Part shown: positions 17,438 to 41,740 of the stretch, one piece after another | Numbering within the stretch: the stretch's first letter is position 1 | Layout: each line of letters begins with the position of its first letter | Assembly: GCA_016699425.1 (NCBI GenBank) | Contig: CP064975.1 | Span: forward strand, 590,098-654,097 | Direction of reading: 5' to 3' | DNA length: 64,000 nt | Source: Candidatus Moraniibacteriota bacterium | Lineage (GTDB): Bacteria; Patescibacteriota; Minisyncoccia; Moranbacterales; UBA1568 | Translations under genes and position numbers: made by a program | Notes under the pieces: generated by a model | What the model was told of the DNA's origin: nothing | Databases searched by the model: none | The model's input: only the letters and a program-made list of their open reading frames with translations

Positions 17438-17860
17438 ATGCCGCAAGTTGTCATTCGGTTCAATGAGCAGTTGCCACATGCCCCGATGGATCATCCGAGG
17501 TGGGAAGATCTTGAAAGACAGATCGCGGTGATTGTCGCAACTGCCCTCAATGTCGAAGGGTCAGCGTCATTCAAACTCCATCCCGATGATGTTGAAGTCT
17601 TCATCGAGCCTATCTTGGAGCGGCGGAGCTATTTGGATCGCAACGCAGCACCCATCACGATCCTCGTGACCGCAAACAAGTGCCCTGAACGTGTGGCTAA
17701 CTTGACTGAACGAAACGACCAAATTATCGATGGGGTTCTCGAATACTCGTGGGCTCTGGCAGAGGTTCTACTGCAACCAGATATGCCTCCCACGGGAAAA
17801 TCAAGGAAATTACTCGGTGTCTGGACCCAGCTCGTCGACGGCGCCTACGCCACCCGGTAA
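17438..17860 (+). CDS. hypothetical protein (140 aa)
   Basis: Strong RBS (gaaaggagaacgctATG). The 201-aa track ORF (17255) has an implausible N-terminal extension. Confidence 0.5.
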   Translation: MPQVVIRFNEQLPHAPMDHPRWEDLERQIAVIVATALNVEGSASFKLHPDDVEVFIEPILERRSYLDRNAAPITILVTANKCPERVANLTERNDQIIDGVLEYSWALAEVLLQPDMPPTGKSRKLLGVWTQLVDGAYATR

Positions 17861-17937
17861 CATGTACATCTCTGCTCAACTGAGCACTCGCCGCCCCTGA
17901 TTCAGTTCACGGGCGGCCCATTTTTTTATTATGCTCG

Positions 17938-18888
17938 CTACGTCGTCAAAAGCGACCAAGCCTCGCGTGAATCACGGAGTAAAAGATCCCAGGCCGTGAC
18001 CGAACACACGCCGTCGAGCGCCGCTCGGTCCTCGGTCGTGAGCGTGAGATGCTTCACGTCCTGCGCACCCATGATCGGATACATGATCGAAGCCGGATTC
18101 ACCACATGTGCGATGCCGAGTGCGTGCCCCAGCTCATGGATCAGCACCATGCGGAGGTGTTCGCGGTCGTCGAATTGATAGATGTCGATACCGGTACCCT
18201 CATACACTCCCTGGTCGAATGAGCCCTCGGTGCCATAGGTCGCAGTGAAGTCATTCACCCGCTCATTATAGCGGTCGACCACTTTCTCCCCCTCCTTGGC
18301 ATAGCGGTTCACTTCCGTCACCAGCGCATTCACTCTGTCCCGCTCCTTTTCCAGTGCCGTTTGGTCCTGTCGCAGCCGCTTCTCTTCACTTTGGATACCC
18401 TCGAGCTCATCTTGGTCCGTCCGCGCGCTCCGATTCCAAGCATCGACACGCGCATTGTACCGCCCGAGCCGAGTGTCAAAAGTGGCGGCTGATGCATCGT
18501 ACTTCTGGCGGGCCTTGGCCAGTTCGGCTGAAAACGCATCATATTTCCCCTTGATCGTCGTCTGCTGGGATTGGACTGCTGCCCATTCATGGTCGAGCGC
18601 CTGGCCATCGATCGTCCGCGCCTGCCGCTCGTCAAAGATGAGATTCACCGGAAAGAGCGCCCCGGCTTCATAGCGGAAGAGGTCCCGACCAAGCGCTTCC
18701 TCCCATGGCTGTTCGGCACTGGCAATGGCCTGTCGGAATTCATCCTCCGAGATCCCGAAGCGCGGATCAAACTGGCCCACCGAGTAGGCGAGCGCCTGTT
18801 GGCAAGGCACGCGTGTCGACTCGAACGCGTAGAGCGTCCCGATACCCGCGCCGAGGATGATGATCCAGATGATGATGCGTTTCAGCAT
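17938..18888 (-). CDS. membrane-anchored metzincin (matrixin-like) zinc metalloprotease
   Basis: HELGHALGIAH (HExxHxxGxxH) and a Met-turn (SIMYP); N-terminal TM helix and a long coiled-coil linker. Confidence 0.75.
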   Translation of the reverse strand: MLKRIIIWIIILGAGIGTLYAFESTRVPCQQALAYSVGQFDPRFGISEDEFRQAIASAEQPWEEALGRDLFRYEAGALFPVNLIFDERQARTIDGQALDHEWAAVQSQQTTIKGKYDAFSAELAKARQKYDASAATFDTRLGRYNARVDAWNRSARTDQDELEGIQSEEKRLRQDQTALEKERDRVNALVTEVNRYAKEGEKVVDRYNERVNDFTATYGTEGSFDQGVYEGTGIDIYQFDDREHLRMVLIHELGHALGIAHVVNPASIMYPIMGAQDVKHLTLTTEDRAALDGVCSVTAWDLLLRDSREAWSLLTT

Positions 18889-18995
18889 AGTCCCCTCCAT
18901 GATAGCACTCTGGGCTTTGACAAGCCGGCCAGCGGATTGCTAGTATCGACGGGTTCCCATCCCTTACATTAACAACCCAAACCCAGAGGTACCCC

Positions 18996-26062: not shown

Positions 26063-27822
26063 TTACTCGAGAGAATCACACCAGTTGTACCGGTGAAACT
26101 TGTCCTGCGGCATGCCATTTTTCCCTTTCAATACAAAGGTCTCTACATCAGCGCCAGAAAGAATGCTCCCTTCACAAAATACATTATCTTTATCTCTCGC
26201 ATAGCTATAGTAGATGAAATCACCATAGCCTTCATCAGAACTCAGCCCACGTCCCAAAACTCTGAAAGAATCATGGTCTGCACCACCTATTTTTTCCCCA
26301 TTATGATAGATGGATTCCTTATCCTTTCCATATACTCCACTACCCTCTGGTATCAACTGGAATGTAGAGACATCAGCCCCGATCTTTCTTGCTGGATGAT
26401 CAAAGTAGTAGACCGAATTTTTATCTTTGCTGTAACGAGATTTTTGAATTACCGTAAATGACACTGGATCAGCCCCGTCTATCACCTCATTTTCGTAGTA
26501 AACCTTACTACTGTCTTTCGAGTAGGGATATTCGAGCGGAGTAAAACTTTGAGCAGGGTCCCGCGTAAGAAGGTATTCGCGTAAATAGACATTTTCTTTA
26601 TCGCGAGCATACCCATTGTTCAACACTCGAAATGTAGGAGCATCCGCGTATGCTGGAGACTCGGAGAAAGAGTTCGCACGCACACGAACAAGATATGGAG
26701 GTTCATGACCACCAGGAGGAGATTGGTAGTAAATTGCTTCTTGATAAAGGTAGTAATTTTCCCCCAGGCTCTTAGCGCTTGTTGGCAGCTTCCCGCGCTT
26801 AAGGAAAGCAAGGTCCTGTTTCGGGAAAACCTGACCATCTTTGTAGGCTCTATTCTTGTCTTCTCCAAAACTACTGAAGAGTAATTGGACATCCTCGACT
26901 ATATGGAAGGTTTCTGGATCAGCCCCCTCTATTCGCTTGTGAGTGTGGTATACACTGTTCTTATCTTTCGCATACATGTTTGAATGTGGACCGTCGTCGT
27001 TGGCTCCTAAGATCTCAAGCGTAGCTGGGTCAGAACCCTCAATCAGGTGCGTCCCATAGTAAGTGTTCGTCCTATCCCTTGCCCACGCGCCTCTTATGAC
27101 TTCGAAAGTGGTCGGATCTGCGTCTAACACCTGCCTCATTTCATGTGCATCTGAATCAGAAAACCAAGCCTGCAGCAGCACCTTCTTGTCATCGACAAGA
27201 TAGGTCATCACAGGACTGCTCCCCTGGAGAATCCGAAAGCTACTCGCGTCAATATCGGTTAGTCTTTCTGCTTTGTAGAAAGCAAAGTTCTTGTCTTTAG
27301 CATAGAAAACAAAAGGTAAATCAGTTACCCAAAAAGTCTCAGGATCAGCCCCGTCAATCTCTTCGCCGCTAAAGTAAGCATTGTTTTTATCAGCTGCATA
27401 CCCATTTCCCAATATTCGGAATGTTGCAACATCTACCCCCTGAATCTGATACAACTTCCTCGTACTCCCGTCCTTTACATAGCCGTTAACATAAACAGCT
27501 CTATTATCGTGTGCGTACTCATTATTGTAGATTTGGAATGAATTCACGTCAGCATCAGCTATCACGTAAGAATCTAACCAGTAGACAGCCTCTTCATCTT
27601 TGGAAAAGTCTTCGGACAATTCTACTTTCCTATTAATATCATCCCAAGTTTCAACAAGGGATGCACGAGTTGGTGTTGAAACCTCCACTAAACTCGTGCT
27701 TCCAACCTGCTCTACTGCAGGAGATGTTTCTTTCTTTACGCCGCGAGAATACACCATACTTGCCGTGATGACAATCACAAGCGTAAGGAGCGCAACAATG
27801 ATAATTGATCGATAATTCATGT
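26063..27822 (-). CDS. DKNYY-repeat membrane-anchored protein
   Basis: N-terminal TM helix, then at least 10 repeats of (Y/F)xKDKNxVYxxGxxIxGADPxTFxxL. AT-rich relative to flanking genes. Confidence 0.75.
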
Positions 27823-27845
27823 CCCCAGTATACCCTAGGGATATT

Positions 27846-27907
27846 GCAGAGGAAAAAAGAAAAAGCGCCCAGGATCCATTCGGACCCCAGGCACTCAAGA
27901 CCTCGTT
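27846..27907. repeat. 62-bp conserved intergenic element, copy 1
   Basis: aagaaaaagcgcccaggatccattcggaccccaggcactcaagacctcgtttgttttgaaa; near-identical copy at 39508-39569. Confidence 0.8.
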
Positions 27908-27940
27908 TGTTTTGAAATCAAGTCCAGACTCCCTCAATAG

Positions 27941-29131
27941 ACCGTGATGGGACTACTCACCGTGCAATTGTTGGCTTCATTTGACTCTGTGACCGCACTT
28001 TGATAATCAGCGCAGCCCTTGAAGTAGTACGTGCCACGGGCACCAGATCTTCATGCCGCCATCGTACTGCTCGCGTTCTTCACAACCGACGCAGAGTTTG
28101 GAAGCCTCGGTCCCATCATCGGTAATGTACGTCCAGGTACCGCCCGTGCCCGGACCCATGAACCAGTACGAGCTCCGGATTGCTGCTGGTGAGGGAGCGG
28201 TGCCGACGTTTTTCACGTACATCGCTGGATAGAACTTGCTCCCCGCCTTGATCGACGCTGACCCACCCGCTGGACCAACCGCTCTCACGATGAAGTCGGG
28301 TTGGGGTGGTGGTTTGGGCGCCAACGTCACCGTCAGGCTGGCTGAGTTGTTGGTCTCATCTGTTTCCGGTTGTGTTCCCTGGTAGTCGGTGAAAAAAGAG
28401 AGGGTGCAGGTTCCGACCACATTCGGCAATTGAACCGGGGTAAGAGTCTCTTCCCAAGCACTCGCACCAGCCGTGAGGCTGCTGGCCATGGTGCCATCGT
28501 CAGTGAGCAGTATGTTCGATCCCCCATTGCAGGAAACCGTGTAGGCACTGCGGATGTCAGCTGTGGCATTGACCGTGCCTTGATTGGTGATGGTGGCGCC
28601 GAGACGGACGAAGTCGCCAGCGTAGGTAGGGGCTTGGAGGAGGGTGAAGCCGCTCGGGGTGAGGTCGACATCGGGGACGTTGACTGTCCCTTCGACGACT
28701 TCAATCACTGCTTCGGTACTGCAGTTGTTGGACTCGTGCTTTTCGTCGTGCTCGCCGCCGTTGTTGTGATCGTCCTGGGGATGATCGATACAGGCGACAA
28801 TATTGTAAATGCCGGGTTCCGTGATCCACTCCCGGATGACCGTATTCTTGGTCTCGGTATGCGTATCGCCTGGCTTCAAGCTGTCGCACTGGGTCGTCGT
28901 GCTATCGATCCTGCGCCGCGCACCGTCACCACTAGAAGAATCCTTCTTGTAGCCCTTGGAGAGGTAGAAGTGGCCGGTAATGGTCTGCGTGGTATCGTCT
29001 GGATTGCAGGGGCCGTCACCGATATTCTTGGTTTGGGCTTTGGTATCGAAGGATTCATCCAGGCCGAACGTGTTGACTCTGGTACCCCAGGGGGTTTCGA
29101 GCCAGGTCTTGGTGGTAACGAAGTCGGGTGG
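27941..29131 (-). pseudogene. C-terminal half of an IS-disrupted secreted M23-peptidase/CARDB gene (two CARDB-like domains)
   Basis: With the IS removed, the reading frame is continuous from the M23 ORF into this segment (…APPAPEPPD|FVTTKTWLETPWG…LKPGDTHTE…). An extra +1 frame break near 28030-28045 separates the final CARDB motif (…GTYYFKGCADYQSAVTESNEANNCTVSSPITVY*). Confidence 0.7.
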
Positions 29132-29231
29132 GATACCGTTACCTTTTCAGTTGATGGAAAGTGTTGTTCTTGTTAGACTAGAGCCTCAAACCGGCTGTAA
29201 AGTTGACTTTAAGCCTTAAATTTCATTCAGC

Positions 29232-29975
29232 ATGTCAAAAAAATGGTCACGTCACTGTCCCCGCTGCAGCAGTCGTGAGACGGTGAAGAATGGCTCCCAA
29301 GGCTACAGCCATCACTACCTGTGTCGTGCTTGTGAACATTCTTTTTCTCGTTACTTCGGGCATGATCCGAGACTGCTGTGGATCGAGCATATTGATGGGG
29401 TACCGTTTCGTAAATTAGGAGATGAATATGGTCTCTCGGGAAAACAAGCCTTCGTGAGAGTTACAAGAGAATTAGCACAACTTCCTTCCAATGACGCTCT
29501 GACGCAAACCCTCTGTGACCCGAGACGCTTCTCGGGCATCCTTGTCATGGATGGGAAGTATGTGGCGGTCAAAGGCTTTGCGAGAAAGATTCCTTTTCTC
29601 TACGGCATTGATTACTTGACCCACGATATTCCCTTCGGGGCTTTGTATACAGCGGAAGATGAGGTGTCCTTCTCACGTTTCTTCCATCAAGTGAAGCAAC
29701 TTGGCTATGATCTTCAGATCGTGGTCGCCGATGACCGCTCTGGCCTGAAAAAGGCTCTCCTGAAGGTTTTTCCGTCGGCTCGGCTGCAGCTCTGCCACAA
29801 CCACTACCTGGAGAATATCCGGGTGGCTTTACGGGTGCGGAGTGAAGAGCGATACCGGCCCTTCTTTTACGCTCTCAAGGAGAGCGTGTTTGGAGAACGA
29901 GAGGATGTGACGAACGCCATTCGATCTTTGCCGCGAGCATCAAGAGAGAGAAACGTCTGCTCAAAAACATCGTAA
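29232..29975 (+). CDS. IS transposase ORF A (InsA-like zinc finger plus most of the DDE domain)
   Basis: CPRCSSRETVKNGSQGYSHHYLCRACEHSF is an IS1 InsA-type zinc ribbon. Candidate catalytic D residues in LVMDGKY and IVVADDRSG. Ends …CSKTS* immediately after a CAAAAAC run. Confidence 0.75.
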   Translation: MSKKWSRHCPRCSSRETVKNGSQGYSHHYLCRACEHSFSRYFGHDPRLLWIEHIDGVPFRKLGDEYGLSGKQAFVRVTRELAQLPSNDALTQTLCDPRRFSGILVMDGKYVAVKGFARKIPFLYGIDYLTHDIPFGALYTAEDEVSFSRFFHQVKQLGYDLQIVVADDRSGLKKALLKVFPSARLQLCHNHYLENIRVALRVRSEERYRPFFYALKESVFGEREDVTNAIRSLPRASRERNVCSKTS

Positions 29976-30319
29976 GTGAGATAGCGTACCGGCAGGAGGA
30001 ACTCTTCAATTACTTGCTGCTGCCAGGCTGTCCCAACAACACCAATCTCATTGAACTCTACAATTCCCATCTCAATGGGAGGCTGAAGACGATCAAGGGT
30101 TTTCAGAGTTTTGCTTCGGCTCAGTGTTGGTTGAATGCGTGGATGATACGGAGGAGAACCAAGCCTTTTACAGATTGTGAAGCTAAATTTAAATATTTGA
30201 ACGGTTACCCTTCACTCTCTTTGAGTATCAAAAAACAGGCTCGCTGGCCTGAGACATTAGTAAAACTAGGCGTAGAAGCAGTAAAACTTTTTGAAAAAAA
30301 GCGCCCTACTATCAACTGA
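29846..30319 (+). CDS. IS transposase ORF B (-1 frame; carries the N…E…N motif with the catalytic Glu)
   Basis: …EIAYRQEELFNYLLLPGCPNNTNLIELYNSHLNGRLKTIKGFQSFASAQCW is the DDE-transposase E-region. Open from 29846 and overlaps ORF A by ~130 nt. Confidence 0.7.
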   Translation, partial: RAIPALLLRSQGERVWRTRGCDERHSIFAASIKREKRLLKNIVSEIAYRQEELFNYLLLPGCPNNTNLIELYNSHLNGRLKTIKGFQSFASAQCWLNAWMIRRRTKPFTDCEAKFKYLNGYPSLSLSIKKQARWPETLVKLGVEAVKLFEKKRPTIN

Positions 30320-30343
30320 AAAGGTAACGGTAACGTCGGGTGG

Positions 30344-31375
30344 CTCGGGAGCGGGCGGGGCGATAGCTTGGATGGGATAGCCCTGACCGGTACCGTACAC
30401 TGCTTTGGAAGCATTGCCCGCGACCACGTTGCCTGTGTAGACATTGATGGTGTTGATGGTCCCGAAAGCACGAATATCAGCTGCGCTGACTGTTTCCCCG
30501 AAGAAGTTACGAATGGCACGCCAGAACCTCTGCCACAGTGGATCTTCTGGTACTTGCTCTTGCGGATCCTGACTGTCCGCAATCGAAAAGAGTTGATTCT
30601 GGGCTTCGACACAGGCGTCCATACCAGCCGGTTGAGCAAACATATTGGTGCCCAGACGGTAACGAGTATCTGCGCCTTCACAAGAACTGGTGGTCGGTGT
30701 CCAACAGACTGTGCCCTGACAGCGCGCTTGGACTTCGGTAGATTGGTTGTAGGCAGAGTGGGTTTGAATGAAGCGGATGGGATCCTCGAATGAATTCGTA
30801 CAGGTGTTATCCCCTTCGCACGGAGTCCTCCATTCGGTATTTGCCATCATCCCCCAACCCTTTACACCCTTAACGGTAGCGGGAGGCGTACTTCCGAAGA
30901 AGATACCGAAATGCAAGTGGATGCCGCAACACCAGTCTCCGGTTTTCCCTATGGGTCTTCCAGCATAAACATCGTTTCCTGCCGGCAGACTTTCTTTCGA
31001 GAGATGCCCGTACAACGCAGTAAATACCTTCCCATCATACATTTTGTGTCGGATGAACAAGGCACAATTTCCGGGGCCCCATGCAGCATCATCACAATGA
31101 CGCTTGTAGATCGTACCATCTGCAATGGCATAGACATTGGCGTCCAGCCTGCGCGTCATCATATCCACGCCATTATGGTAGAAGCCATCGAAATAGTGCG
31201 GGGCTTCCGATGCGCTTTCATGTGCGTCATCCCTTCCTAACCATGTACCTCCCCCGCTCTCAAACGTTGCTTTTCCAATTGGATAGAAGAATCCCGTCTC
31301 CGTCTGGTCAATAGCATATACCGCATGCGCAAACAGACACAGCACTACCAGGATGAACATCGTTACTGCTTTCAT
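30344..31375 (-). pseudogene. N-terminal half of the IS-disrupted gene: secreted M23 (LytM-type) metallopeptidase domain
   Basis: Signal peptide MKAVTMFILVVLCLFAHAVYA and M23 motifs (…GRPIGKTGDWCCGIHLHFGIF…). The 369-aa track ORF (30266-31375) ends with 26 IS-encoded residues. Confidence 0.8.
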
Positions 31376-31485
31376 GTTGCTCTCCTTTCTGAGAGACTGA
31401 TTGTAAAGGGACTGCTGGTGTAGAGATAAAAAATACTATCCTACAGAATCTACGCATCATCTGATGTGTAGATTATTGTAAGACA

Positions 31486-32136
31486 CTATCTAACAAGCCT
31501 GATCGAGGAGAGAAATTGCTTTTTTATATTCTCATCCAATTGTTTTTGTACCCACGGGAAACTTATTCGGTAATATCCGCCATTGTATTCGAACATTATC
31601 GCTTCATAACCCATTTCGCCAGGCATTGAGAGGATGTATGCCTTTGTTCCATCTATTGTTGTCTCACCAGTTACATTAATGTATGTGTGTTCGCTATCTG
31701 CAAGAAAATCCTCAAAATTCTCATACTTTTTCTCTTCTTCCCAACTACCCCCTTTCAATTCCGGATTATTTATGTCTTCCCATCGATTAATTGAAATAAC
31801 CAGGAAATAGCCTGGGATCTTCTGACCAGTTAAATCCTTTGCGTCTCCATCAAACTCCATGAACATAACCACACAACCGATATCTGTTGACTCGCTATCT
31901 ACCTTGAATGCTGTCGGATATTTAACGCTGAGCTTTAGTGTATCATTTCGATAGGTTTTCCAGTCGGAAGTATCGATCGGGTTCGCTGGTTCAGTCTGTG
32001 TCACTGGCTCGACGACGGGCTCAGTGGTCACAGGTGGATGAATGACTGCCTGCCGCTTTTGCATCATCCAAAAGGCGCCAGCAATGACGAGCAGGGCGAT
32101 AAGGGCGGTAGCGAGGAAGAGGGGTTTATGATTCAT
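31486..32136 (-). CDS. membrane-anchored hypothetical protein, paralog family A
   Basis: MNHKPLFLATALIALLVIAGAFWMMQ N-terminal anchor; paralog of 41008-41688 (MHQKPLFLTIILITLLAVIAGAFWCLQ). Immediately upstream of the M23 gene. Confidence 0.6.
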   Translation of the reverse strand: MNHKPLFLATALIALLVIAGAFWMMQKRQAVIHPPVTTEPVVEPVTQTEPANPIDTSDWKTYRNDTLKLSVKYPTAFKVDSESTDIGCVVMFMEFDGDAKDLTGQKIPGYFLVISINRWEDINNPELKGGSWEEEKKYENFEDFLADSEHTYINVTGETTIDGTKAYILSMPGEMGYEAIMFEYNGGYYRISFPWVQKQLDENIKKQFLSSIRLVR

Positions 32137-32283
32137 AGATTTGGAAATTGAAAGTAGCAAAAAGGGACTGAGACTGTCAAGCCCAGAATACTTGATTCCG
32201 AACGGACGGTCGAGAAGCGTGAACAGTCCCGCAAGGATTCCGACCAGGTGATCAGGAATTAGCCATTGACTCGAGGAAATTCT

Positions 32284-33624
32284 TTACGGTGTGAGGCGCT
32301 TGACGTCGCGCGGATAGAGGATGGCTTCCTTGATAGAGCCGAGGCCGAGGAGCTTCTGGACGATACGTTCGCTGCCGAGCCCCCAACCACCGTGCGGGGG
32401 TGTCCCGTACTTGAAGATGTCGAGATAATCCTTGAAGGCTTCCGGATCGAGTCCTCGTTGTTCAAGTGTTTCTCTCAGTTGGGCATAGTCATGAATCCGT
32501 TCGGCACCTGACGCGATCTCCACACCGCGGAAAACGAGGTCGAAGGTTTCACTCTGCTTCGGGTCCCCAGGACTCGGCAGGCTATAAAAAGCGCGAGCCG
32601 CCGTCGGGTAATGCGTCAGGAATACCAGATCAGAATTGTACTTCTGCTTGACGTATTCGCCGATCAGCCGTTCCCCTTCACTGTCGATATCCTCTGCCTC
32701 CAATTCCTTGCCATATTCTTTCTTCAGAATTTCAAACGCCTCGGCAAGACGCATACGCGGAATAGCCACTGGCTCGGGGACCGTCGCTCCATACTGGGCA
32801 AGTGCACCGGCACACGTCGCGCCGATATGACGGAACATGTGGTGTATGGTCTTTTCTAGCATCGCCATCACGTCTTCCATGCTGTCGATGAACCCCATCT
32901 CGGCATCAAGTCCTGTAAACTCCGTCACGTGGCGGGTGGTATAGCTGGGCTCCGCGCGGAACACGCTGCCGATCTCGAAGACACGCTCGAATGCGCTCAT
33001 CCCCGCCTGTTTGTAGAACTGCGGACTCTGGGCCAGGTACGCATCCCGATCAAAGTACTTGATCTTGAAAAAGTTCGCCCCACCTTCGGTCGCGGCCGAA
33101 AGGATCTTCGGTGTCTTGATCTCCATAAATCCCTCGCTCCGCATATAACCCTCGTAGGATTCGAGGAGCACATCATACACCTGAAATATCGCCTGCACTT
33201 TCGGATTGCGCAGGGTCGCTGTCCGATGATTCAACAATGTCTCGAGCTGAAGATGCATCTCGGGCTGTGAGACGTCAATCGGCAAGTCCTCGACTGGCTG
33301 CCCAACAATCGTAAGCGCAGTGACTTCGATTTCGATCCGATCTTCCGGCCGAACCGAAACTCCTTCTCCATCGCTCCCCTTTTTCAGCGGACGCTCCTTG
33401 ACCAGCCCCTCAACAGTCACCGCATACTCCGCGCGAACCTCTCTGGCAGCCTCGATAACCGTCGACTTCTCTGGTGTCACGACGAGCTGCACCGCGCCGC
33501 TCCGATCACGCAGGACAAAGAAGATAAGCTTGCCATGGTCTCGGCGCTCCATTATCCAACCCGAGAGTCGGACCGTCTCACCGCCATTCCCCGCCGCGTC
33601 ATGAATCAGTGTCCGTGCCAGCAT
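32284..33624 (-). CDS. aspS: class IIb aminoacyl-tRNA synthetase, archaeal-type AspRS (or AsnRS)
   Basis: 446 aa with OB anticodon-binding domain; motif 2 FRAEPSYTTRHVTEFTGLDAEM; C-terminal GGWGLGSERIVQKLLGLGSIKEAILYPRDVKRLTP. AspRS type 2 and AsnRS cannot be separated by eye. Confidence 0.6.
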   Translation of the reverse strand: MLARTLIHDAAGNGGETVRLSGWIMERRDHGKLIFFVLRDRSGAVQLVVTPEKSTVIEAAREVRAEYAVTVEGLVKERPLKKGSDGEGVSVRPEDRIEIEVTALTIVGQPVEDLPIDVSQPEMHLQLETLLNHRTATLRNPKVQAIFQVYDVLLESYEGYMRSEGFMEIKTPKILSAATEGGANFFKIKYFDRDAYLAQSPQFYKQAGMSAFERVFEIGSVFRAEPSYTTRHVTEFTGLDAEMGFIDSMEDVMAMLEKTIHHMFRHIGATCAGALAQYGATVPEPVAIPRMRLAEAFEILKKEYGKELEAEDIDSEGERLIGEYVKQKYNSDLVFLTHYPTAARAFYSLPSPGDPKQSETFDLVFRGVEIASGAERIHDYAQLRETLEQRGLDPEAFKDYLDIFKYGTPPHGGWGLGSERIVQKLLGLGSIKEAILYPRDVKRLTP

Positions 33625-33645
33625 ATGTTTCCGTTCTCAGTCAGA

Positions 33646-34488
33646 TTATTTCTCAGAAAAAAATTCCTTCGCGATTGAGGTGAGTTCACTCGGCGTCACC
33701 TGAGTCTTCAGAAACGAACGATCCACCGCTCCCGATGCTTCAAGCGCTTTCACTTCTTCTTCCTCGAGTGAAGCGGTAAGGAGGAATATCGGTGTATGTT
33801 TCGTCTGCTCATCGGCCCGCAACGTCTCGATGATGGCTTTACCGTTCATCGTTGGCAGTAGATGGTCAGTAATGACGAGATCGAATCCCCCCGTCCGGGC
33901 CTGCTCCAACCCTGCCCGGCCATCGCTCTCGACCACGACATCATAGCCATCATCCCGGAGCGGCTTTCCAAACATCTCGGCGAACACCGGCTCGTCCTCG
34001 AGAAGCAGGATACGCTTCTTCATCCCCGGTTCCAGCACTGTCTCAGCAGACGAATTGACCTCGGCATGAATCGAGTCAGCCGCCGCCAGGAGGCTCGCAT
34101 GCCTTTGTTGGGAAGCAAATTGATCGAGATACCGCTGAACCTCAACAACGACTTCCGAAGGAGTGAAATCCGTTTTCGAAATGAAACCGTCCGCCCCGGC
34201 GGCGAGGGCCTCTTGCCGCTCCTGCGGACCAGACAGGTTGCTGAAGATGACGATCTTCAGACCAGTATCGAAGTCCCTATCCGTACGGAGCTCATGCAAG
34301 ACCTCCATACCGGACAGCTCCGGGAGGACCATGTCGAGCAGAACGAGGTCGAAAGTGCCCTCACGAACCTTCTTCAATGCATCGCGACCAGACAACGCCG
34401 GCACGACCTCGAACCCCGACGATTGAAATTTCTTGGTATAGATCTCGGATATGAACGGGTCATCTTCGACGAACAGGAGGGTGGCCAT
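33646..34488 (-). CDS. response regulator with two tandem receiver (REC) domains and no output domain
   Basis: REC1 LFVEDDP…DLVLLDMVLP…KIVIFSN; REC2 ILLLEDEP…DLVITDHLLP…PIFLLTAS. Confidence 0.8.
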   Translation of the reverse strand: MATLLFVEDDPFISEIYTKKFQSSGFEVVPALSGRDALKKVREGTFDLVLLDMVLPELSGMEVLHELRTDRDFDTGLKIVIFSNLSGPQERQEALAAGADGFISKTDFTPSEVVVEVQRYLDQFASQQRHASLLAAADSIHAEVNSSAETVLEPGMKKRILLLEDEPVFAEMFGKPLRDDGYDVVVESDGRAGLEQARTGGFDLVITDHLLPTMNGKAIIETLRADEQTKHTPIFLLTASLEEEEVKALEASGAVDRSFLKTQVTPSELTSIAKEFFSEK

Positions 34489-34520
34489 AGGGGTGATTCA
34501 TTTCTATCTTCTGCAGAGTA

Positions 34521-36188
34521 TCAGTGTTCGGATTCCTTTTCAAGCGGCGGATGACCAATTGGCAGACTAATCGTGAAGCACGTCCCCTTCCCACGTCCCG
34601 CTGACTCCACGCTGATCGTGCCGCCGTGTGCCTCGATGAAGCTCTTACCTACATAAAGACCGAGTCCCGTACTTGAGACGTTTACCTTGGCGGCATCCTT
34701 ACCCCGTTCGAATTTTTTGAAGAGGTGCGGCAGATCATCAGCATCAACTCCGACACCTGTGTCCGACACTGTCACCACGACCCGATCCCCCGCTTTCCCC
34801 GCCTTTACAGCGACCTCGCCCTTTTCAGTATATTTGATGGAATTATCAATGATGTTGGAGATCGCCTCCCGGATCTTTGCACTGTCAATCTGGAGCATCG
34901 GCAGCGGGTCCTTGGGGAGCGTAATCCCTAGCTTCAAGCCCTTCGCATGGGCCGCAAGAACAAAGACATCTCGCAGCTCGGTGAGAATATCCTCGATGTG
35001 TGCAGAGGCGAACTGATATTGGATCCGTCCCGCCTCGATGCGCGAGATATTGAGCAGGTTTTCCACCAGGTTCATGAGTCGATTGTTGGCGAGATACACT
35101 TTGTTCAAAGTATCCGAGACGCTTGGTTCGAGCCGACCATACGCGCCTTCGAGGAGGAGTGAAACGAAACCCTTGATCGCCGTCAGTGGCGTCCGGAGCT
35201 GATGCGAAGCAATCGAGATGAACTCGCTCTTGGCATTGTCCAGCCGCCGCAGCTCAGCATTGGCGATCGCGAGACTATCGCTGATTTTCTGTAATTCTTC
35301 CTTGCGTTTAATCTCCTCCTTCACTGAACGGATGAGGAAATAGGCAAATATAATTGCTATGAAAAGTGTGATTGTTGTGAGAATAAGTCCTGAAGTCGAA
35401 ACGATAAAGAAATATTCTGTCCCGATGAGTATGATGAAAGCCCCCATGAGTGCTTGAGCAGCCAGTATCTTTATGTTGAACGCTTCATACTTAACGATCA
35501 TTACAACGAGGAAAGCCATGAACACAAACATACCGAAAAGGCCATATTGTTCATACTCCCATGTCCCAAGGACATCCGCGACTAAATTCCCTGTGTAGAA
35601 ACTCATTATAAAGAAACCAGTACCCAAAGAAAGGAGGAGGGCCTGTCTCCTGTTTAACCACCAATTCTTTCGACACTCATAGAGAAGGAATAGCGTAAGC
35701 CAAACAAAATATACTGCTTGGAGACCACGGAAATAGACGGTAAGCCCACCTTCATTCGCCTCACAGATTGACAAGTCGAAGCCTGTGAGATTTAGATTCG
35801 TAGGAAGTAATAGTAAAAAAGGGAAAAGCGGCAAGACCCCCAGAGAAAAAAGCCATGCGCGAGGGTCCTTTCGTTCTAAAAATACATAAGAAAAATATAG
35901 CGTTAATGCTGGAACGAGAATATAGGTAAAATTCATGAAGGACCATGAGACCATGATGATCCGACTATCAACGTTGGTCCAATTAATCAGATCGATGAAA
36001 TTCCAGAGAGAGAATATGGAAACGACCGATAAAAGCAGTTTACTCTCAAGGCTCTTGTTCTTTGAAAAGACTAGCAGTCCGATAAGGATTGCTGTGAAAA
36101 TGACTGGAATATGAGAGTAATAAAGAAGAGTCGGAGTGGAGTTCGAGAAAATCAGCGCTATCGGTGATGGAATGTCAGTACAAAACAT
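34521..36188 (-). CDS. sensor histidine kinase with polytopic N-terminal membrane domain
   Basis: About 8 TM helices, then HisKA H-box SIASHQLRTPLTAIKG and HATPase_c boxes (DTGVGV…GTGLGLYVGK). Confidence 0.85.
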   Translation of the reverse strand: MFCTDIPSPIALIFSNSTPTLLYYSHIPVIFTAILIGLLVFSKNKSLESKLLLSVVSIFSLWNFIDLINWTNVDSRIIMVSWSFMNFTYILVPALTLYFSYVFLERKDPRAWLFSLGVLPLFPFLLLLPTNLNLTGFDLSICEANEGGLTVYFRGLQAVYFVWLTLFLLYECRKNWWLNRRQALLLSLGTGFFIMSFYTGNLVADVLGTWEYEQYGLFGMFVFMAFLVVMIVKYEAFNIKILAAQALMGAFIILIGTEYFFIVSTSGLILTTITLFIAIIFAYFLIRSVKEEIKRKEELQKISDSLAIANAELRRLDNAKSEFISIASHQLRTPLTAIKGFVSLLLEGAYGRLEPSVSDTLNKVYLANNRLMNLVENLLNISRIEAGRIQYQFASAHIEDILTELRDVFVLAAHAKGLKLGITLPKDPLPMLQIDSAKIREAISNIIDNSIKYTEKGEVAVKAGKAGDRVVVTVSDTGVGVDADDLPHLFKKFERGKDAAKVNVSSTGLGLYVGKSFIEAHGGTISVESAGRGKGTCFTISLPIGHPPLEKESEH

Positions 36189-36219
36189 AATATATTTTCA
36201 CTATAGCAATATATCGGCG

Positions 36220-37158
36220 TTACGTGGAGAGGAAGAATACACCGGTGCTAATTATAATGGAGCAAAAAATCTTAATTTTATACCCGACAAGCTGCTGACC
36301 ATACATCGCCACCCTAGCCTTAAGGGATGAAGAAAACTCAGAGGATAAGACAATAAAAACGCTAAACAGCATGACAATTATCGGACTCAGACTTTCTATT
36401 GTTGCCACCAGCGCAGATGAGGGGCTTAAGTCTAGCGCTCGCTGAGAAAACATGGTCCCCACCAACGCTAGGGCCTCAGCTGAGAAGAATACAAGAAAGT
36501 AACTTCTTGAAAGAGTGAAAATTCTCGCGAGATTTCCACTACCATGACGCAGGCGTCGGAATGCCACAAGAAATAACGTCCCAGCTATGGCTCCAGATGA
36601 GAACAATAGATAACCGTCGAAAAAAATTCCATCGGAGAGACTATAGCCATGGCTAGCCAATAACATACTGACTGAGAGAAAAACAACCGCTGACCCCATA
36701 GGTGCAAGGAGCGGAGTGAGTTGGTTCAAGCTAAAAGATTTACTTAAATGGAGTGCTGATACACCTAAGAACACAAGGAGACAACCGATATATTGATTTG
36801 CATGTAATACATCTCGATACATTACCCATGAGAGTAGCATCGTCATAGGGACTGTAAAATTCCAAAGGAGCTGAACCAATGAGGCATCGTTTTTTGCGAA
36901 TAGAGCCTTGAAGTAGAAAAAATTTGCCCAGACGAACAGTGCACCAGACAGAGCCAGACTTAAAACCCCCGCATTTGGTAGCGAAAATCTCCAGGCACCA
37001 ACAAGAACAGTGAGCCAGGGCAATAGTTGAAAAGCTCCAGAGACAATGGCGCCATCGTACTCGTCTGAATAGATAGAATCAACAAAGTAAACATCTATCA
37101 AATTCACGATTGCCCACAGCAACGGAGCGACTAGGGCGATAAACAGCCAGGATTCCAT
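36220..37158 (-). CDS. DMT/EamA-family membrane transporter
   Basis: 10 predicted TM helices in a two-fold EamA-like arrangement. Confidence 0.55.
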   Translation of the reverse strand: MESWLFIALVAPLLWAIVNLIDVYFVDSIYSDEYDGAIVSGAFQLLPWLTVLVGAWRFSLPNAGVLSLALSGALFVWANFFYFKALFAKNDASLVQLLWNFTVPMTMLLSWVMYRDVLHANQYIGCLLVFLGVSALHLSKSFSLNQLTPLLAPMGSAVVFLSVSMLLASHGYSLSDGIFFDGYLLFSSGAIAGTLFLVAFRRLRHGSGNLARIFTLSRSYFLVFFSAEALALVGTMFSQRALDLSPSSALVATIESLSPIIVMLFSVFIVLSSEFSSSLKARVAMYGQQLVGYKIKIFCSIIISTGVFFLST

Positions 37159-37167
37159 ATGATTCCA

Positions 37168-38472
37168 CTAATCTAACCAACCCCAATTTTTCAGCTGATT
37201 TCGGCTACTCAATTCAAAAGAAACACCGATATCATCACGGTAAAACGCCTTTGGAATAATGAGGTTTTTAACCCGTGTATATGCTTCGTCCCGCGCCAGT
37301 TCTATTGTCTTCCCGGAGCCACAGACATGAGCGACACAACCACGATTCCCAGCTATGTACAACTCCCCCATATCTTTGCAAGCCGCCTCTTCGAATCCGT
37401 AATGCTGCAACCCATCTAATGAAACCTTCTCTCTGAAAAGAATTGGTAGACCATTCGATGTTTCTGCAGTATGAACGTTCACATAGTAAGGATAGGGCGG
37501 GACAGCTACCGTCACGACGATGCCATACCCAGTCTTGTATTTCAGATCATATGTCTCTCCATCTGCAATCGCTGATAGAAACTCGATCCACGGAGACTCG
37601 TGTAACTCGATTTGAAGAGCTGTCGATGGGTTACCAAAACGAGCAGTGAACTCTAGTGGCCATGCTCCGTCTTGATTGACAATACAATTAATATCCACAT
37701 CTCCGCGGAAATCAATGTCTCTGAGATAATCAGCAACTTTCGCAAGTGTAGAAGAAAACAAGTGATTCTTCTCATTTCCGTCATACCACATCAAAGTACC
37801 CATCTCCGCCGTTTTTGGCCCAATCTCACCAGACATTAAGGCCTTGTGCTCAACATTCATTTCGATCGGACCAACCCAATCCTTACCGTTGAAATAACGT
37901 GCGACGCCAACCTCCACTCCGTCTACGCGCTGTTGCAGGTTTACTGCGGTTACGCCTTGATCCCGATAGTGCTCCAGCATGCCAATAAGGTCAGACTGAT
38001 CCTGGCTCTCGCCGACGAAGCAGAGCGAACTAATGTGCCCCCCATTCACCTTTGCCACCCAGCGATTCTCCGTATGTGTCTCAAGAAATCTCACCGCGTC
38101 CAAGAGATTCGAGAAGGTATAAGCCGGAAGTACATTCATTCCCGCCATTTCAAAGATCTGCTTCCCTACCAATCTATCAGTTTCGATGCGATCACCCTCC
38201 CGACTACCGCCAACTACTCGATACCCTTCCTTACGTAGGCTTGACTGTTCTACTCCGAAACCAATATCATCAAAAATGATAAGACCTTGCTTTCCAACCC
38301 ACGTCAATTCGCCCTTCCAGTCAGTAGTCTTCTGAACAAACCCGTCTAGACCAGAGGCAACTTCCGGATCTTGGATATACATCTTTACCTCACACTGCTC
38401 ACTGATAAGTTTAAATACAAGCTCAGACGCACCGAGTTCTCGGGATATAAAAAGTACTCGCATATTTTTCAT
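37168..38472 (-). CDS. ATP-grasp enzyme, PurD (phosphoribosylamine-glycine ligase)-like
   Basis: Collinear with GARS: MRVLFISRE… (N-domain), GPKTAEMGTL (cf. GPNTGGMGAY), EFTARFGNPST (cf. EFNCRFGDPE). Confidence 0.55.
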   Translation of the reverse strand: MKNMRVLFISRELGASELVFKLISEQCEVKMYIQDPEVASGLDGFVQKTTDWKGELTWVGKQGLIIFDDIGFGVEQSSLRKEGYRVVGGSREGDRIETDRLVGKQIFEMAGMNVLPAYTFSNLLDAVRFLETHTENRWVAKVNGGHISSLCFVGESQDQSDLIGMLEHYRDQGVTAVNLQQRVDGVEVGVARYFNGKDWVGPIEMNVEHKALMSGEIGPKTAEMGTLMWYDGNEKNHLFSSTLAKVADYLRDIDFRGDVDINCIVNQDGAWPLEFTARFGNPSTALQIELHESPWIEFLSAIADGETYDLKYKTGYGIVVTVAVPPYPYYVNVHTAETSNGLPILFREKVSLDGLQHYGFEEAACKDMGELYIAGNRGCVAHVCGSGKTIELARDEAYTRVKNLIIPKAFYRDDIGVSFELSSRNQLKNWGWLD

Positions 38473-38948
38473 TAATCTCCATCGTTCTTCCCCTCACCCT
38501 CAACCATATCCGAAACCGAGTCCGATTCCAATTCTGATACTAAGCCTGATTCACTCTCCTCGTCGACAGAAATCTGGCTACACTGCTCATTCTCCGGAAC
38601 ATTATTTTCACCACAGAACTCCTCTCTACAAGTGGCTACTTCTGAGCAAAGAATCTCCGGGCACGCACCTTCATTCGGACTACACAAAGGAACCTCTGCT
38701 GCCGAGACTGTTCTTATCTTATAGTAGTCAACTTCGCCCTCTTCACAATCTTCCTCACAAACGCGAACAAAACACGCCTCAATATCTGGATCACACACAA
38801 CTTCGCTCACTAGTAAATAATTCCTATCAATGTAAACCCTCTTCACGACAAGTCCGAAGGAAACCATAAAAAAAAGGAGAAAAGCAAGAATAATAGAAAA
38901 CTGTATCTTGCCCCCCCTTACATCCTGGCTCTGCATAGATTCAATCAA
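38472..38948 (-). CDS. Cys-rich acidic membrane-anchored hypothetical protein
   Basis: One TM helix, then 14 Cys in CxxxC/CxEE spacing and an acidic tail; ATGA overlap with the ATP-grasp gene. Confidence 0.45.
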   Translation of the reverse strand: MIESMQSQDVRGGKIQFSIILAFLLFFMVSFGLVVKRVYIDRNYLLVSEVVCDPDIEACFVRVCEEDCEEGEVDYYKIRTVSAAEVPLCSPNEGACPEILCSEVATCREEFCGENNVPENEQCSQISVDEESESGLVSELESDSVSDMVEGEGKNDGD

Positions 38949-39507
38949 ACTTTACTCTGCTTATATTCTACCAGATTATTCCTAAACCACTATAGAAAGT
39001 GCCGAATGTTTAGAATATTCTCACTATGGACACAACTAAAATAGAATCTGCTTGTTGTTAGTACTGCTCGTTGATATTTACCCCGAACGATACGAGAAGT
39101 GGGGATCTATCCTGAAATATCAATAGAAAGAAACACTCAAAGAAGAAAAAGGATTCGTCTCGGAGATGGAGTAATGTCACAACACCTGAAAGCCCCCACT
39201 GACTTATACCTGGGGTTAGATTCCCTTCGGACTTGGCTTACCTGTGCACGACCTAGTCACCGCTGTCCAGCCGAGATCGGCTGCACCAGCGGCAGTGAGG
39301 CTGGCAGCCCGGTCAAAAACGCCGCCAGAACGAAATACCCACCAAATAATAGAAAGACAATGGAAGAAAACACTACTGCCCGGTGAGACCCTTCAGTACG
39401 CATAAATTTTTTGTTTCGTGAGTTCAGTATAGTCCTCTCCATCCAAAAGGCGCAAGCAATCTCGCGACACTTAAGTGTGCTTGAGACTTTCCAGGTGTTT
39501 ATCTATT

Positions 39508-39569
39508 GCAAAAGAAAAAGCGCCCAGGATCCAGTCGGACCCCAGGCACTCAAGACCTCGTTTGTTTTG
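39508..39569. repeat. 62-bp conserved intergenic element, copy 2
   Basis: aagaaaaagcgcccaggatccagtcggaccccaggcactcaagacctcgtttgttttgaaa; 61/62 identical to copy 1. Confidence 0.8.
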
Positions 39570-39588
39570 AAAAAGCTCCACCGTGCCC

Positions 39589-40890
39589 TCAGTTCGTGAC
39601 CGTAATGGTCAGGCCTAAGGGTACTCCAGGGACGTTGTTGACGACTGAAAACGTCTGGATCTCCGTCCAGCTATCACCTTCATTGCTCTCAAAGGCTTCG
39701 TCCTCGGCATCGATCTTGGCTTTGAACGAAATGGTCGAGACCCCGAGTGGGACCGTGTAGTCGATGTGCTCGGTATGCGTAGCACCACTGGGGAGGTTGG
39801 TGGCCTGGATGTATTCGCGCTTGAGGAAGAACCAATCACCGAGGTCCAGACGAGCGTAGAGATCGACTTCGATTCGGTTCTTGCCGGGACGCATGTGGTC
39901 ATGGGTGTCGCCGTCCTTGGCTTTGACTTGGATCCGGGGTTGAATAACCTGACCAACTCGGACAGTTGATGTGGCCGGGTCAAGATCGGTACCCGATGCC
40001 ACGTCCCGCACCCAGAAACGGTTGACTTTCAGGTTAAAGGGGTCAGTACCGGCACCACCAAACACGCCATAGTGCTTGGTATCACTCGTTGCAACCCGAC
40101 CAGAGATCCGAGAACAGAGTCCCATAGTTGGATTGGAGAGACAGTAGGTCCTGTCCTGAGTGATATGGATGAAGTAATGTGGAAACTTAACGTCATTCGG
40201 ATCAGCGCTCTTGCACACCTTTCTCGCCCCAGTCCGACGGCCAAAGTTAAGTTCGTTGTCCCAGTTGTACTCAGAGACCTGCACGCACTTCACCCCGTTG
40301 TCTGCTCCGTCTGGTTCACCGTCTTCCTCTACTAGGGCAACATGGCCGTACTTATTGGCAGCGCGAATGATATTACCTTTCACATCTTTTTTCGCATCCC
40401 AGGCTTCCCAGACTGCGATATCTCCCTCGAATGCCCCGTTGAGACGGCTCTTTTCGAATGTGAACCTGTCTCGAGCGCCAGTGATTCCGATTTCGGATAC
40501 TCGAGCAGCATCGAACCAGTGATACCCACTCCCCCATGTCTGGCCGTAGTAGCTGTTCTTGAACTCGGGAGTTGTATTCCCCCAAGCCTCGTTCAGTTTA
40601 CTGGCCACATAAGAGGTACAGTTGCACTGGGCAAAACTCCATTTGTCGATGAAGTAACTCAGGTTATCCCACCGATATCTTGAGGTGCTGGCTATGTACT
40701 TGAAAGAATCAGCACTAGAGAGCACTCCTCCAGCCACCTGCTTTGTCTCATTTTCTCGTGTGACTTCGTCACCTTCATCTTTTGGACACTTGTCACGATA
40801 GAGGTATGTATCGTTTGTGTCTTCAGCAAAAGATGGAGATGGGGCAAACTGAAACATCAATGTACATAAGAAACACAGGAAAACTCGCAT
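39589..40890 (-). CDS. secreted CHAP-domain peptidoglycan hydrolase with C-terminal CARDB-like domain
   Basis: Start at MRVFLCF with RBS gaaggaggtgatagaATG (signal peptide). CHAP catalytic Cys (CNCTSYVASKL) and His (GHVALVEE). C-terminal …AEDEAFESNEGDSWTEIQTFSVVNN… resembles the CARDB motif. Confidence 0.75.
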   Translation of the reverse strand: MRVFLCFLCTLMFQFAPSPSFAEDTNDTYLYRDKCPKDEGDEVTRENETKQVAGGVLSSADSFKYIASTSRYRWDNLSYFIDKWSFAQCNCTSYVASKLNEAWGNTTPEFKNSYYGQTWGSGYHWFDAARVSEIGITGARDRFTFEKSRLNGAFEGDIAVWEAWDAKKDVKGNIIRAANKYGHVALVEEDGEPDGADNGVKCVQVSEYNWDNELNFGRRTGARKVCKSADPNDVKFPHYFIHITQDRTYCLSNPTMGLCSRISGRVATSDTKHYGVFGGAGTDPFNLKVNRFWVRDVASGTDLDPATSTVRVGQVIQPRIQVKAKDGDTHDHMRPGKNRIEVDLYARLDLGDWFFLKREYIQATNLPSGATHTEHIDYTVPLGVSTISFKAKIDAEDEAFESNEGDSWTEIQTFSVVNNVPGVPLGLTITVTN

Positions 40891-41007
40891 TCTATCACCT
40901 CCTTCGGTTGGAAAAGGACCACTCGCCAATGATACTGACGAGTCCTGAAACGATTATAGGTAAGTCGTTTCAAGACTAGCCACCATAAAGTATGGATCTT
41001 TGAATAG

Positions 41008-41688: not shown

Positions 41689-41740
41689 AGAAATTAAAGG
41701 TGGAGATTAGCAAAAAAAAAATACAAGTTGTCAAATTCTT

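Follow-up and report, generated by a model that had tools for sequence, protein, structure and literature searches.

A multi-copy IS256/Mutator-like insertion sequence with an IS1-type zinc ribbon in a hydrolase gene of a Moranbacteria genome

The 64,000-nt stretch of Candidatus Moraniibacteriota bacterium contig CP064975.1 examined in this study (hereafter the window; all coordinates are window positions) very probably contains a genuine copy of a multi-copy, ~1.2-kb IS256/Mutator-like insertion sequence (IS), which lies with a 9-bp target-site duplication (TSD) in the M23-CARDB linker of a secreted peptidoglycan hydrolase gene of a 1.2-Mb Moranbacteria genome. Recoding of the transposase is proposed as part of the same account, and the indels of the window copy are considered likely errors. 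As an insertion event this is ordinary, a DDE-type IS knocking out a non-essential secreted hydrolase gene; from the sequence comparisons made here, the only feature that goes beyond the ordinary is a conserved layout at the start of the transposase gene, where a run of eight A residues (A8) precedes a +1 change of frame.

Insertion into an M23-peptidase/CARDB gene

The element, its target site and the interrupted gene are arranged as follows.

29123-29131, unstranded: target-site duplication, left copy, 9 bp GTCGGGTGG (from the sequence; one copy in the uninterrupted homologue L011)
29132-30334, plus strand: insertion sequence, 1203 bp as assembled (canonical population version 1205 bp)
29132-29157, plus strand: left terminal inverted repeat GATACCGTTACCTTTTCAGTTGATGG (repeat search; terminus GATACCGTT kept in nine related elements)
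30309-30334, minus strand: right terminal inverted repeat, inward reading GTTACCGTTACCTTTTCAGTTGATAG (repeat search)
30335-30343, unstranded: target-site duplication, right copy, 9 bp GTCGGGTGG (from the sequence)
30344-31375, minus strand: 5' fragment of the host gene, with signal peptide, M23 peptidase domain and linker (open reading frame list, domain search, homologue alignment)
28007-29122, minus strand: 3' fragment of the host gene, a CARDB-containing C-terminal module (same three sources)
28043-28045, minus strand: second lesion of the host gene, an indel plus substitution, ATCTGGTGC versus ATCAGTGC in L015 (single-copy in the window)

Within the 64-kb window, the 9-mer GTCGGGTGG is found only at 29123-29131 and 30335-30343; the chance probability that two flanking 9-mers agree is ~4e-6 (4^-9). 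The terminal inverted repeats GATACCGTTACCTTTTCAGTTGATGG and GTTACCGTTACCTTTTCAGTTGATAG match at 23 of 24 and 24 of 26 positions, and their 20-mer core is found in the window only at the two element ends, with 0 occurrences expected from 100 shuffles. Independent support for these ends comes from 11 other copies of the element, which diverge from the window exactly at GATACC... and ...GGTAAC. The GC content of the element is 47%, compared to 52% for the window. A preliminary description of this DNA had reported a 1203-bp element with 24/26-bp inverted ends and a perfect 9-bp duplication, and both the repeat and the duplication searches bear this out. A scan in and around the element found no sigma-70 consensus promoter; a candidate noticed by eye, TTGATG-17-TAGACT, scores just 8/12 and is not claimed.

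Deleting 29132-30343 yields one 718-amino acid (aa) minus-strand open reading frame (ORF), running from 31375 to 28007 and containing Peptidase_M23 and CARDB domains. The earlier claim that excision restores a continuous frame from the peptidase into the CARDB segment therefore stands, except that the frame ends at 28007 and not at ~27941, owing to the indel at 28043-28045. On the host-gene strand, the left duplication copy reads CCACCCGAC and codes for Pro-Pro-Asp in the linker. As assembled, the 5' fragment reads through the three Pro-Pro-Asp codons of the right duplication copy and then through 22 residues of the IS to a stop codon at 30266-30268, while the 3' fragment has no in-frame ATG, GTG or TTG before 28879. 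The insertion knocks out the hydrolase gene. More than 20 full-length homologues of the same architecture were identified, the best being P0121 (64% identity over 100% of the length). The restored protein aligns without gaps to these homologues across the junction (...APPAPEPPD/FVTTKTWL...), and the junction peptide APPAPEPPDFVTTKTWL is identical in P0121. A search for the empty site, which the preliminary description had suggested, succeeded in that a homologous gene was found intact: the P0121 gene, on contig L011, is uninterrupted, has a single CCACCCGAC at the site, and shows ~81% nucleotide identity on both sides. The insertion lies exactly at the boundary between the M23 and CARDB modules.

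A strain comparison was made with a Ca. Moraniibacteriota metagenome-assembled genome (MAG), L015, whose aspartyl-tRNA synthetase (AspRS) is 99% identical to that of the window and which is 98.7-99% identical to window positions 32054-43778. The AspRS match identifies the host as a bacterium of the Candidate Phyla Radiation (CPR). Compared to L015, the M23 head of the host gene is a different module of low identity (~30%, an estimate) while the tail is shared, and in some relatives this tail is joined to a CHAP head. These observations bear on whether the junctions could be an assembly chimera, in which two loci or strains were wrongly joined at an IS copy because of the repeat. The IS is multi-copy, contigs from the Logan assemblies are visibly chimeric at IS copies (L020, L001), and the M23 half of the host gene cannot be aligned to L015 at the DNA level, whereas most of the CARDB half is 97-100% identical to it. 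However, a misjoin is exceedingly improbable given that the 9-bp duplication is perfect and exactly at both ends, that excision restores the frame with a junction peptide identical to that of P0121, and that both sides are ~81% identical to one uninterrupted gene in L011. In addition, the mosaic relationship to L015 follows a family-wide domain boundary, at which M23 or CHAP heads join the same tail.

The lesion at 28043-28045, defined against the otherwise 97-100% identical L015 allele, exchanges the conserved last 38 aa of the host protein for 13 aa, with the natural stop codon lying near 27934-27936. The gene may truly be decaying after its inactivation, or the lesion may stem from an error in the assembly.

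Several features of the surroundings were also noted. Window positions ~28850-32054, compared to 11571-14560 of L015, form a variable island in an otherwise 98.7-99% identical strain pair. Across this island, DNA identity drops from 97-100% to 63-78%, beyond which the sequences can no longer be aligned. The two genomes differ here in the small genes that separate AspRS from the CARDB tail (one of 224 aa versus two of 251 and 214 aa) and in their M23 heads. In L010 (5375-7404), the CARDB tail (467 aa) is a separate ORF located 17 nt downstream of a 202-aa CHAP ORF, and of the cluster representatives listed, this one has the closest tail (79% identity across 51% of the query). Either a split gene or two separate genes could account for this layout. 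A 62-bp repeat is found on the minus strand at 27856-27917 and 39511-39572 (98% identical), in both cases directly after a stop codon, that of the CARDB gene and that of a CHAP-like gene (39589-40929). The repeat reads ...GCCTGGGGTCCGAATGGATCCTGGGCGCTTTTTCTTTT, a 10-bp stem followed by a T-run, which gives it the appearance of an intrinsic terminator module common to both genes. Downstream of the CARDB gene, the next gene (26063-27937, minus strand) encodes 624 aa with four DKNYY repeats (Pfam PF13644, E 7e-67), and L015 has a different neighbor at this position. An Rfam scan of the window returned just two tRNAs.

Transposase family

The coding features of the element, and the two homopolymer runs at which the window copy differs from other copies, are the following.

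29232-29975, plus strand: transposase ORF1 as assembled, 247 aa (ORF list, domain search, homologue alignment)
29927-30319, plus strand: remainder of the transposase in a shifted frame, residues 233-362, with stop codon 30317-30319 (tblastn, homologue alignment, sequence)
29237-29243, plus strand: A7 run directly after ATG TC, which is A8 in 11 other copies and in seven diverged relatives
29927-29929, plus strand: T3 run, which is T4 in 11 of 11 other copies; the missing T causes a -1 frame shift

The transposase is not a single ORF in the window; as assembled it consists of 29232-29975 followed by a continuation in the -1 frame to 30319, and the final 15 residues of ORF1 are out of frame. ORF1 comprises a four-Cys zinc ribbon, with which it starts (CPRC...CRAC), a helix-turn-helix region, D107 (29550-29552), D167/D168 (29730-29735) and a CxxH pair (C188, H191), and its sole significant Pfam matches are Transposase_mut and MULE. 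The catalytic E275 (30053-30055) lies in the shifted part, within the motif NTNLIELYNSHLNGR. The joined 362-aa protein passes Pfam PF00872 (Transposase_mut; 40.6 bits versus a cutoff of 21, residues 140-299), and it matches the NCBIfam models IS256 (E 3.8e-15, residues 103-305) and 'IS256 family transposase, variant Zn-binding type' (IS256_Zn_var, E 1e-12). D107, D167/D168, C188, H191 and E275 are invariant across an alignment of 27 homologues and align with the motifs of ISCth4; together they form the D..D..CxxH..E pattern of Mutator/IS256 enzymes. Structural comparisons gave the same placement. A profile of the 27-homologue alignment matched ISCth4 in the PDB (6xg8, E 1e-4), and an AlphaFold (AF2) model with a pLDDT of 88.7, in which residues 17-41 form a three-stranded ribbon, returned ISCth4 chains as its top five Foldseek matches (E 1e-10 to 8e-7; best E 1.3e-10, TM 0.54), with retroviral integrase cores far behind. 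Annotated relatives on plasmids are called only 'IS256 family transposase', at ~25% identity.

Insertion sequences of the IS256 family generate 8-9-bp duplications and are ~1.2-1.5 kb in size. The elements of the clade described here fit this range, being 1168-1220 bp long with 9-bp TSDs in five of nine cases. The 9-bp duplication that had been regarded as a hallmark of IS1 is therefore present but does not discriminate, as IS256-type elements share it. Published descriptions give 8-bp TSDs for IS256-family elements, including ISCth4, which is 1503 bp long (PMC7780238).

Two observations count against a straightforward IS256 assignment. The NCBIfam IS256 equivalog cutoffs are missed widely (NF033543, 55.7 bits, and NF048019, 47.8 bits, both versus 150), and neither end of the element has, within its first 60 bp, the subterminal TGTAAA described for the terminal inverted repeats of the IS256 family (PMC7780238, citing Dodd 1994). 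Because of the missed cutoffs and the absent motif, the element is regarded as a distant relative of IS256 rather than a canonical member. By homology to IS256/ISCth4, the element would be expected to move by copy-out/paste-in via a circular intermediate.

The preliminary description had instead taken the element for an intact, IS1-family-like one that encodes an InsA-type ribbon plus a DDE domain and has the 9-bp TSD characteristic of IS1. Part of this was well founded, as the N-terminal CPRC...C..C ribbon reaches the cutoff of the IS1/IS1595 zinc-domain model NF050000 (28.5 versus 28 bits) and so qualifies as InsA-type, with a further, below-cutoff match to Pfam Zn_ribbon_InsA (E 0.002-0.004; 17-18 bits versus 26.1). 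The TSD is 9 bp, and two ORFs in a -1 relation are present as assembled. The catalytic domain, however, does not match IS1: Pfam DDE_Tnp_IS1 gave no match in the 362-aa protein even at E<=1, and NCBIfam transpos_IS1 (NF033558) reached 21.3 bits versus a cutoff of 100 and covered only the 32-residue zinc ribbon (residues 9-40), while by sequence, motif and fold the core is Mutator/IS256. In addition, the -1 break is due to a missing T that is unique among the copies and does not lie at a slippery heptamer, and more than 1100 homologues have a single ORF across the break point. An IS1-family identity is accordingly most improbable for the element overall and is refuted for its catalytic core. 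As judged from its sequence, the element is IS256/Mutator-like with an IS1/IS1595-type zinc ribbon, and is neither IS1 nor a canonical IS256. Identities with IS1595, ISH6 and IS6 were also considered and rejected, as only weak partial NCBIfam matches were obtained (E 1e-3 or worse).

Copies, relatives and proposed recoding

Including its 15 aberrant C-terminal residues, ORF1 is identical to GenBank QQR78061.1 on a 1,217,328-bp Moranbacteria contig, which carries six further variants of the transposase and therefore at least seven in total. The same element is contained in Logan assemblies from at least 10 sequencing runs, whose contigs show seven distinct left and five distinct right flanks, corresponding to at least eight insertion sites; one left/right flank pair shares the 9-bp TSD TCCTTTGCG. 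The left flank of L001 (positions 1-74; SRR11674000) is 92% identical to window positions 17807-17880, a site just downstream of a Peptidase_M10 gene (17938-18900) that is free of the IS in the window. The L001 copy of the IS is 99.4% identical, and this contig was probably joined across two copies, since its other flank has no match. Judging from these flanks, the element has clearly moved within these populations. A search for further copies had been suggested as a check, and copies were found both on the same contig and in metagenome contigs, so that the accompanying statement that mobile elements are rare in such genomes fails for this lineage.

Two further loci with the same IS concern the same type of target gene. 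In L020, the left flank (positions 1-302) is 99% identical to the L015 CHAP gene and the right flank (last 30 nt) matches the 3' region of the CARDB gene in L015 at 100% identity, while the left flank of L018 (positions 1-248) is ~70% identical to the CARDB regions of L011 and L015. As far as flanking sequence can indicate, this suggests recurrent insertion into a family of surface hydrolase genes.

The window copy was previously called intact, which does not hold for the sequence as assembled, because the frame changes at the missing T, which lies after D167/D168 and before the catalytic Glu, E275. A8 and T4 are present in each of the 11 Logan contigs, and apart from these two runs nine of the 11 agree with the window copy at all 1203 bp. 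Three other variants on the 1.2-Mb contig (P0512, P0514 and P0516; P0513 and P0515 are left out of this derivation) each derive exactly from the canonical 1205 bp by one or two homopolymer indels (A8 to A7, A7 to A6, A5 to A4, T4 to T5). P0512 also has the flank of contig L017, and L017 shows the canonical sequence. Unique DNA next to the element has 0 indels over 10.3 kb relative to L015, and homopolymer errors restricted to repeats are what would be expected if short reads could not be placed in the repeats. It is therefore likely, from these comparisons, that A7 and T3 arose as consensus errors when long reads were assembled and short-read polishing missed this repeat. One point weighs against this: Logan contigs may collapse copies to the majority sequence and so mask a real A7/T3 minority copy. 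A -1 ribosomal frameshift at TCTTTG was rejected as the cause of the T3 break, because the site lacks an X XXY YYZ heptamer and every other copy carries T4.

The alternative, that A7 and T3 are real mutations of a truly defective, non-autonomous copy decaying with its host gene after an older insertion, is unlikely, although it is not without evidence. The unique DNA beside the element shows 0 indels over 10.3 kb compared to L015, a 98.7-99% identical relative, which indicates that the assembly is accurate outside repeats; the host gene has its second, pseudogene-like frameshift at 28043-28045 in single-copy sequence outside any long homopolymer; and homopolymers are natural mutation hot spots. 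If the copy were indeed defective, it would move only with transposase supplied in trans. Against such decay are the zero substitutions relative to nine independent short metagenome contigs, the nature of both differences as single-base deletions in homopolymers, the three other contig variants that homopolymer indels alone explain, and the locus with the L017 flank, which is canonical in Logan. A private frameshift in each copy, with substitutions (two amino-acid changes) in P0513 only, would also be an odd outcome of real decay.

Relatives of the transposase number more than 1100 in a 90%-clustered protein collection, mostly on contigs of 1.2-2 kb, a size in line with repeats that interrupt assemblies, and a 50%-clustered library contained 71 representatives below 1e-30. 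Among contigs of one genome per species in GTDB, scanned with query-specific peptide patterns that do not amount to an unbiased census, confirmed matches were found in Saccharibacteria, Doudnabacteria (including one genome with three copies) and one 'uncultured bacterium' MAG, and all named genomes with relatives belong to the CPR. Nine elements were compared in detail (the window copy, L001, L003-L007, L009 and L013), with transposase identities to the window of 46-99% and lengths of 1168-1220 bp. They share the termini GATACCGTT on the left (IRL) and GTTACCGTT on the right (IRR), and five of the nine have perfect 9-bp duplications. At position 2 of the inverted repeats (29133 and 30333 in the window), IRL reads GA... 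and IRR reads GT... in all nine, so that this apparent mismatch is a conserved distinction between left and right ends and not a sign of decay. A scan of metagenomes and viral contigs with the 20-nt inverted-repeat core found one real relative, L013; isolated 22-24-nt matches without a transposase in L012 and L014 were taken as chance. A profile search of viral contigs found no relatives, and literature searches on IS elements in CPR/Patescibacteria and on IS256 with zinc or slippage turned up no account of this clade.

The canonical element reads ATG TCA AAA AAA ATG G..., where the ATG opens a 15-codon ORF. Relative to this ATG, all of the transposase is encoded in the +1 frame, its first CxxC included. 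The same layout (ATG, one codon ending in A, exactly A8, and a +1 zinc-ribbon ORF) is shared by eight lineages at 46-64% aa identity, namely the Moranbacteria element, L002, L003-5, L006, L007, L008, L009 and L013. The seven besides the Moranbacteria element come from several CPR phyla and include several short-read assemblies. A main-frame stop codon is present in seven of the eight, with no ATG, GTG or TTG between it and the first Cys, and in L007, L008 and L009 the stop adjoins the run. Conservation is seen in the main-frame peptide, KK..CPxC.S..T[IV]K.G, whereas the peptides read from the ATG range in length from 5 to 18 aa. A Shine-Dalgarno-like AAAGGA is located 8-10 nt before the ATG in L003 and L013. 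Baranov et al. proposed conservation of ORF organization and of the run in non-identical homologues as a comparative criterion for recoding (PMC1088944); the eight lineages share both and three lineages differ, and by this criterion the layout is a candidate for functional slippage. With A8, the eight also have at least seven A residues at the point of frame change, the number that suffices in IS1447. A 2016 review by Atkins et al. lists recoding only in IS1, IS3, IS5 and IS630, and states that no IS is known with +1 ribosomal frameshifting (PMC5009743).

These patterns tip the judgment slightly toward programmed recoding as the meaning of the A8/+1 layout. Under such a scheme, the full-length 362-aa transposase would come solely from a minority of transcripts in which RNA-polymerase slippage has dropped one A; a +1 ribosomal slip on AAA AAA A would be a less likely route. 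With the run two codons after the start, the default product would be a throw-away peptide and only slipped transcripts would give active enzyme, a requirement that would hold transposase levels low. For the more specific proposal, that a CPR-associated IS256/Mutator-type clade with an IS1-like ribbon gates its transposase by +1 recoding at A8, most likely by transcriptional slippage, the case from sequence is evenly balanced. The sequence AAGAAGAA is a synonymous, interrupted version of the A8 tract.

Several observations weigh against recoding. RNAalifold found no consensus pairs in eight sequences upstream of the run (one input region was mis-specified); a stimulatory RNA hairpin is present just upstream of the run in IS1447 and in Roseiflexus IS630. 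L016 has A7G and would require a -1 shift, L027 has ATG and A9 in frame, and L028-30 lack the run. The Moranbacteria element has an in-frame TTG 13 codons upstream, which offers a possible start without slippage. Together with gene callers, which give ORFs of 300-345 aa starting downstream, all but the last of these points would also suit a different explanation, in which A8 is not programmed and most copies are off or dead through DNA-level slippage or decay, or else start downstream without the full zinc ribbon. This explanation is possible but somewhat doubtful: decay would mix run lengths, whereas eight diverged lineages have exactly A8, exactly +1 and an ATG two codons upstream, and the first CxxC and the preceding basic residues are conserved in a frame with no start codon in seven of the eight. 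Translational coupling of the 15-codon ATG-frame ORF to a GTG at codon 18 was rejected as a mechanism of general reach, since the end points of the short ORFs differ (5-18 codons) and most relatives have no nearby start codon. As a separate observation, the distant transposase relative in L028 (1501-3598), which has no A-run, overlaps a 338-aa reverse-transcriptase (RVT_1) ORF on the opposite strand, and this arrangement may represent an IS beside or inside a group II intron.

These findings change the picture of this CPR genome as almost free of mobile DNA, as one IS alone has at least seven copies in 1.2 Mb and relatives of it occur in Doudnabacteria and Saccharibacteria. The 'pseudogenised transposases' annotated in the deposited complete genome are probably artifacts of unpolished repeats, because the copies differ from short-read contigs by homopolymer indels only, and this calls for caution with pseudogene counts in long-read MAGs. 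If recoding at A8 is true, the IS256 superfamily would join the IS families that use recoding, with an unusual site at the very start of the gene, and a built-in brake would explain how an element persists in many copies in gene-dense, 1.2-Mb episymbiont genomes.

Comparison with known systems

Compared to IS256 and ISCth4 (PDB 6XG8/6XGW/6XGX), the element has the same Mutator-type DDE core (D..D..CxxH..E, with PF00872 passed and ISCth4 as the best fold match) and the same general organization, with one transposase gene in a ~1.2-kb element with terminal inverted repeats that is multi-copy in its host. Its TSD is also similar, at 9 bp compared to the 8 bp of ISCth4 (PMC7780238). It differs in an identity of only ~15% to ISCth4 and ~25% to annotated IS256-family genes, and in a four-Cys zinc ribbon where ISCth4 has an N-terminal DNA-binding array. 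In addition, its terminal inverted repeats lack the subterminal TGTAAA, its scores are far from the equivalog cutoffs, and an out-of-frame ATG and an A8 run precede the ORF. The models NF048019 and NF048018 ('IS256_N_4Cys') describe a similar fusion of a four-Cys N-terminal ribbon with an IS256-type core, and the IS256_N_4Cys N-terminal domain model is passed (28.3 bits versus a cutoff of 27). The full-length NF048019 model, however, scores 47.8 bits versus 150 and aligns with residues 11-200 only; because of this score, the CPR clade is treated as a separate, unnamed lineage.

IS1 is ~770 bp long, and its insA and insB' are two functional ORFs that are fused by -1 ribosomal frameshifting at A6C. 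The element described here resembles IS1 (InsA/InsAB') in its CPxC...YxCxxC N-terminal ribbon, its 9-bp TSD and, as proposed, a transposase whose expression would be tied to a frame change at an A-rich run. In contrast to IS1, its catalytic domain is unrelated at the level of sequence family, and the shift would be +1, at codons 3-5, with no functional upstream protein.

With respect to recoding, the closest parallel is the IS1447 subgroup of the IS3 family (PMC6211511), whose transposase also requires a +1 change at an A run. Transcriptional slippage has been demonstrated for IS1447, with an A9 run at which ~16% of transcripts drop one A and with seven A residues being sufficient (PMC6211511). 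IS1447 belongs to another transposase family, and its run follows a hairpin and joins the DNA-binding OrfA to OrfB, while the run described here is near the start codon, only a 5-18-aa peptide is encoded upstream, and the search for a conserved hairpin found none. A conserved frameshift read as programmed regulation has also been reported within the Mutator superfamily itself, in the ISMich2 group, for which -1 recoding is predicted (PMC3942029). Compared to the proposed +1 change directly after the start codon, the ISMich2 shift is -1, connects two substantial ORFs, and is found in a branch related to ISKra4.

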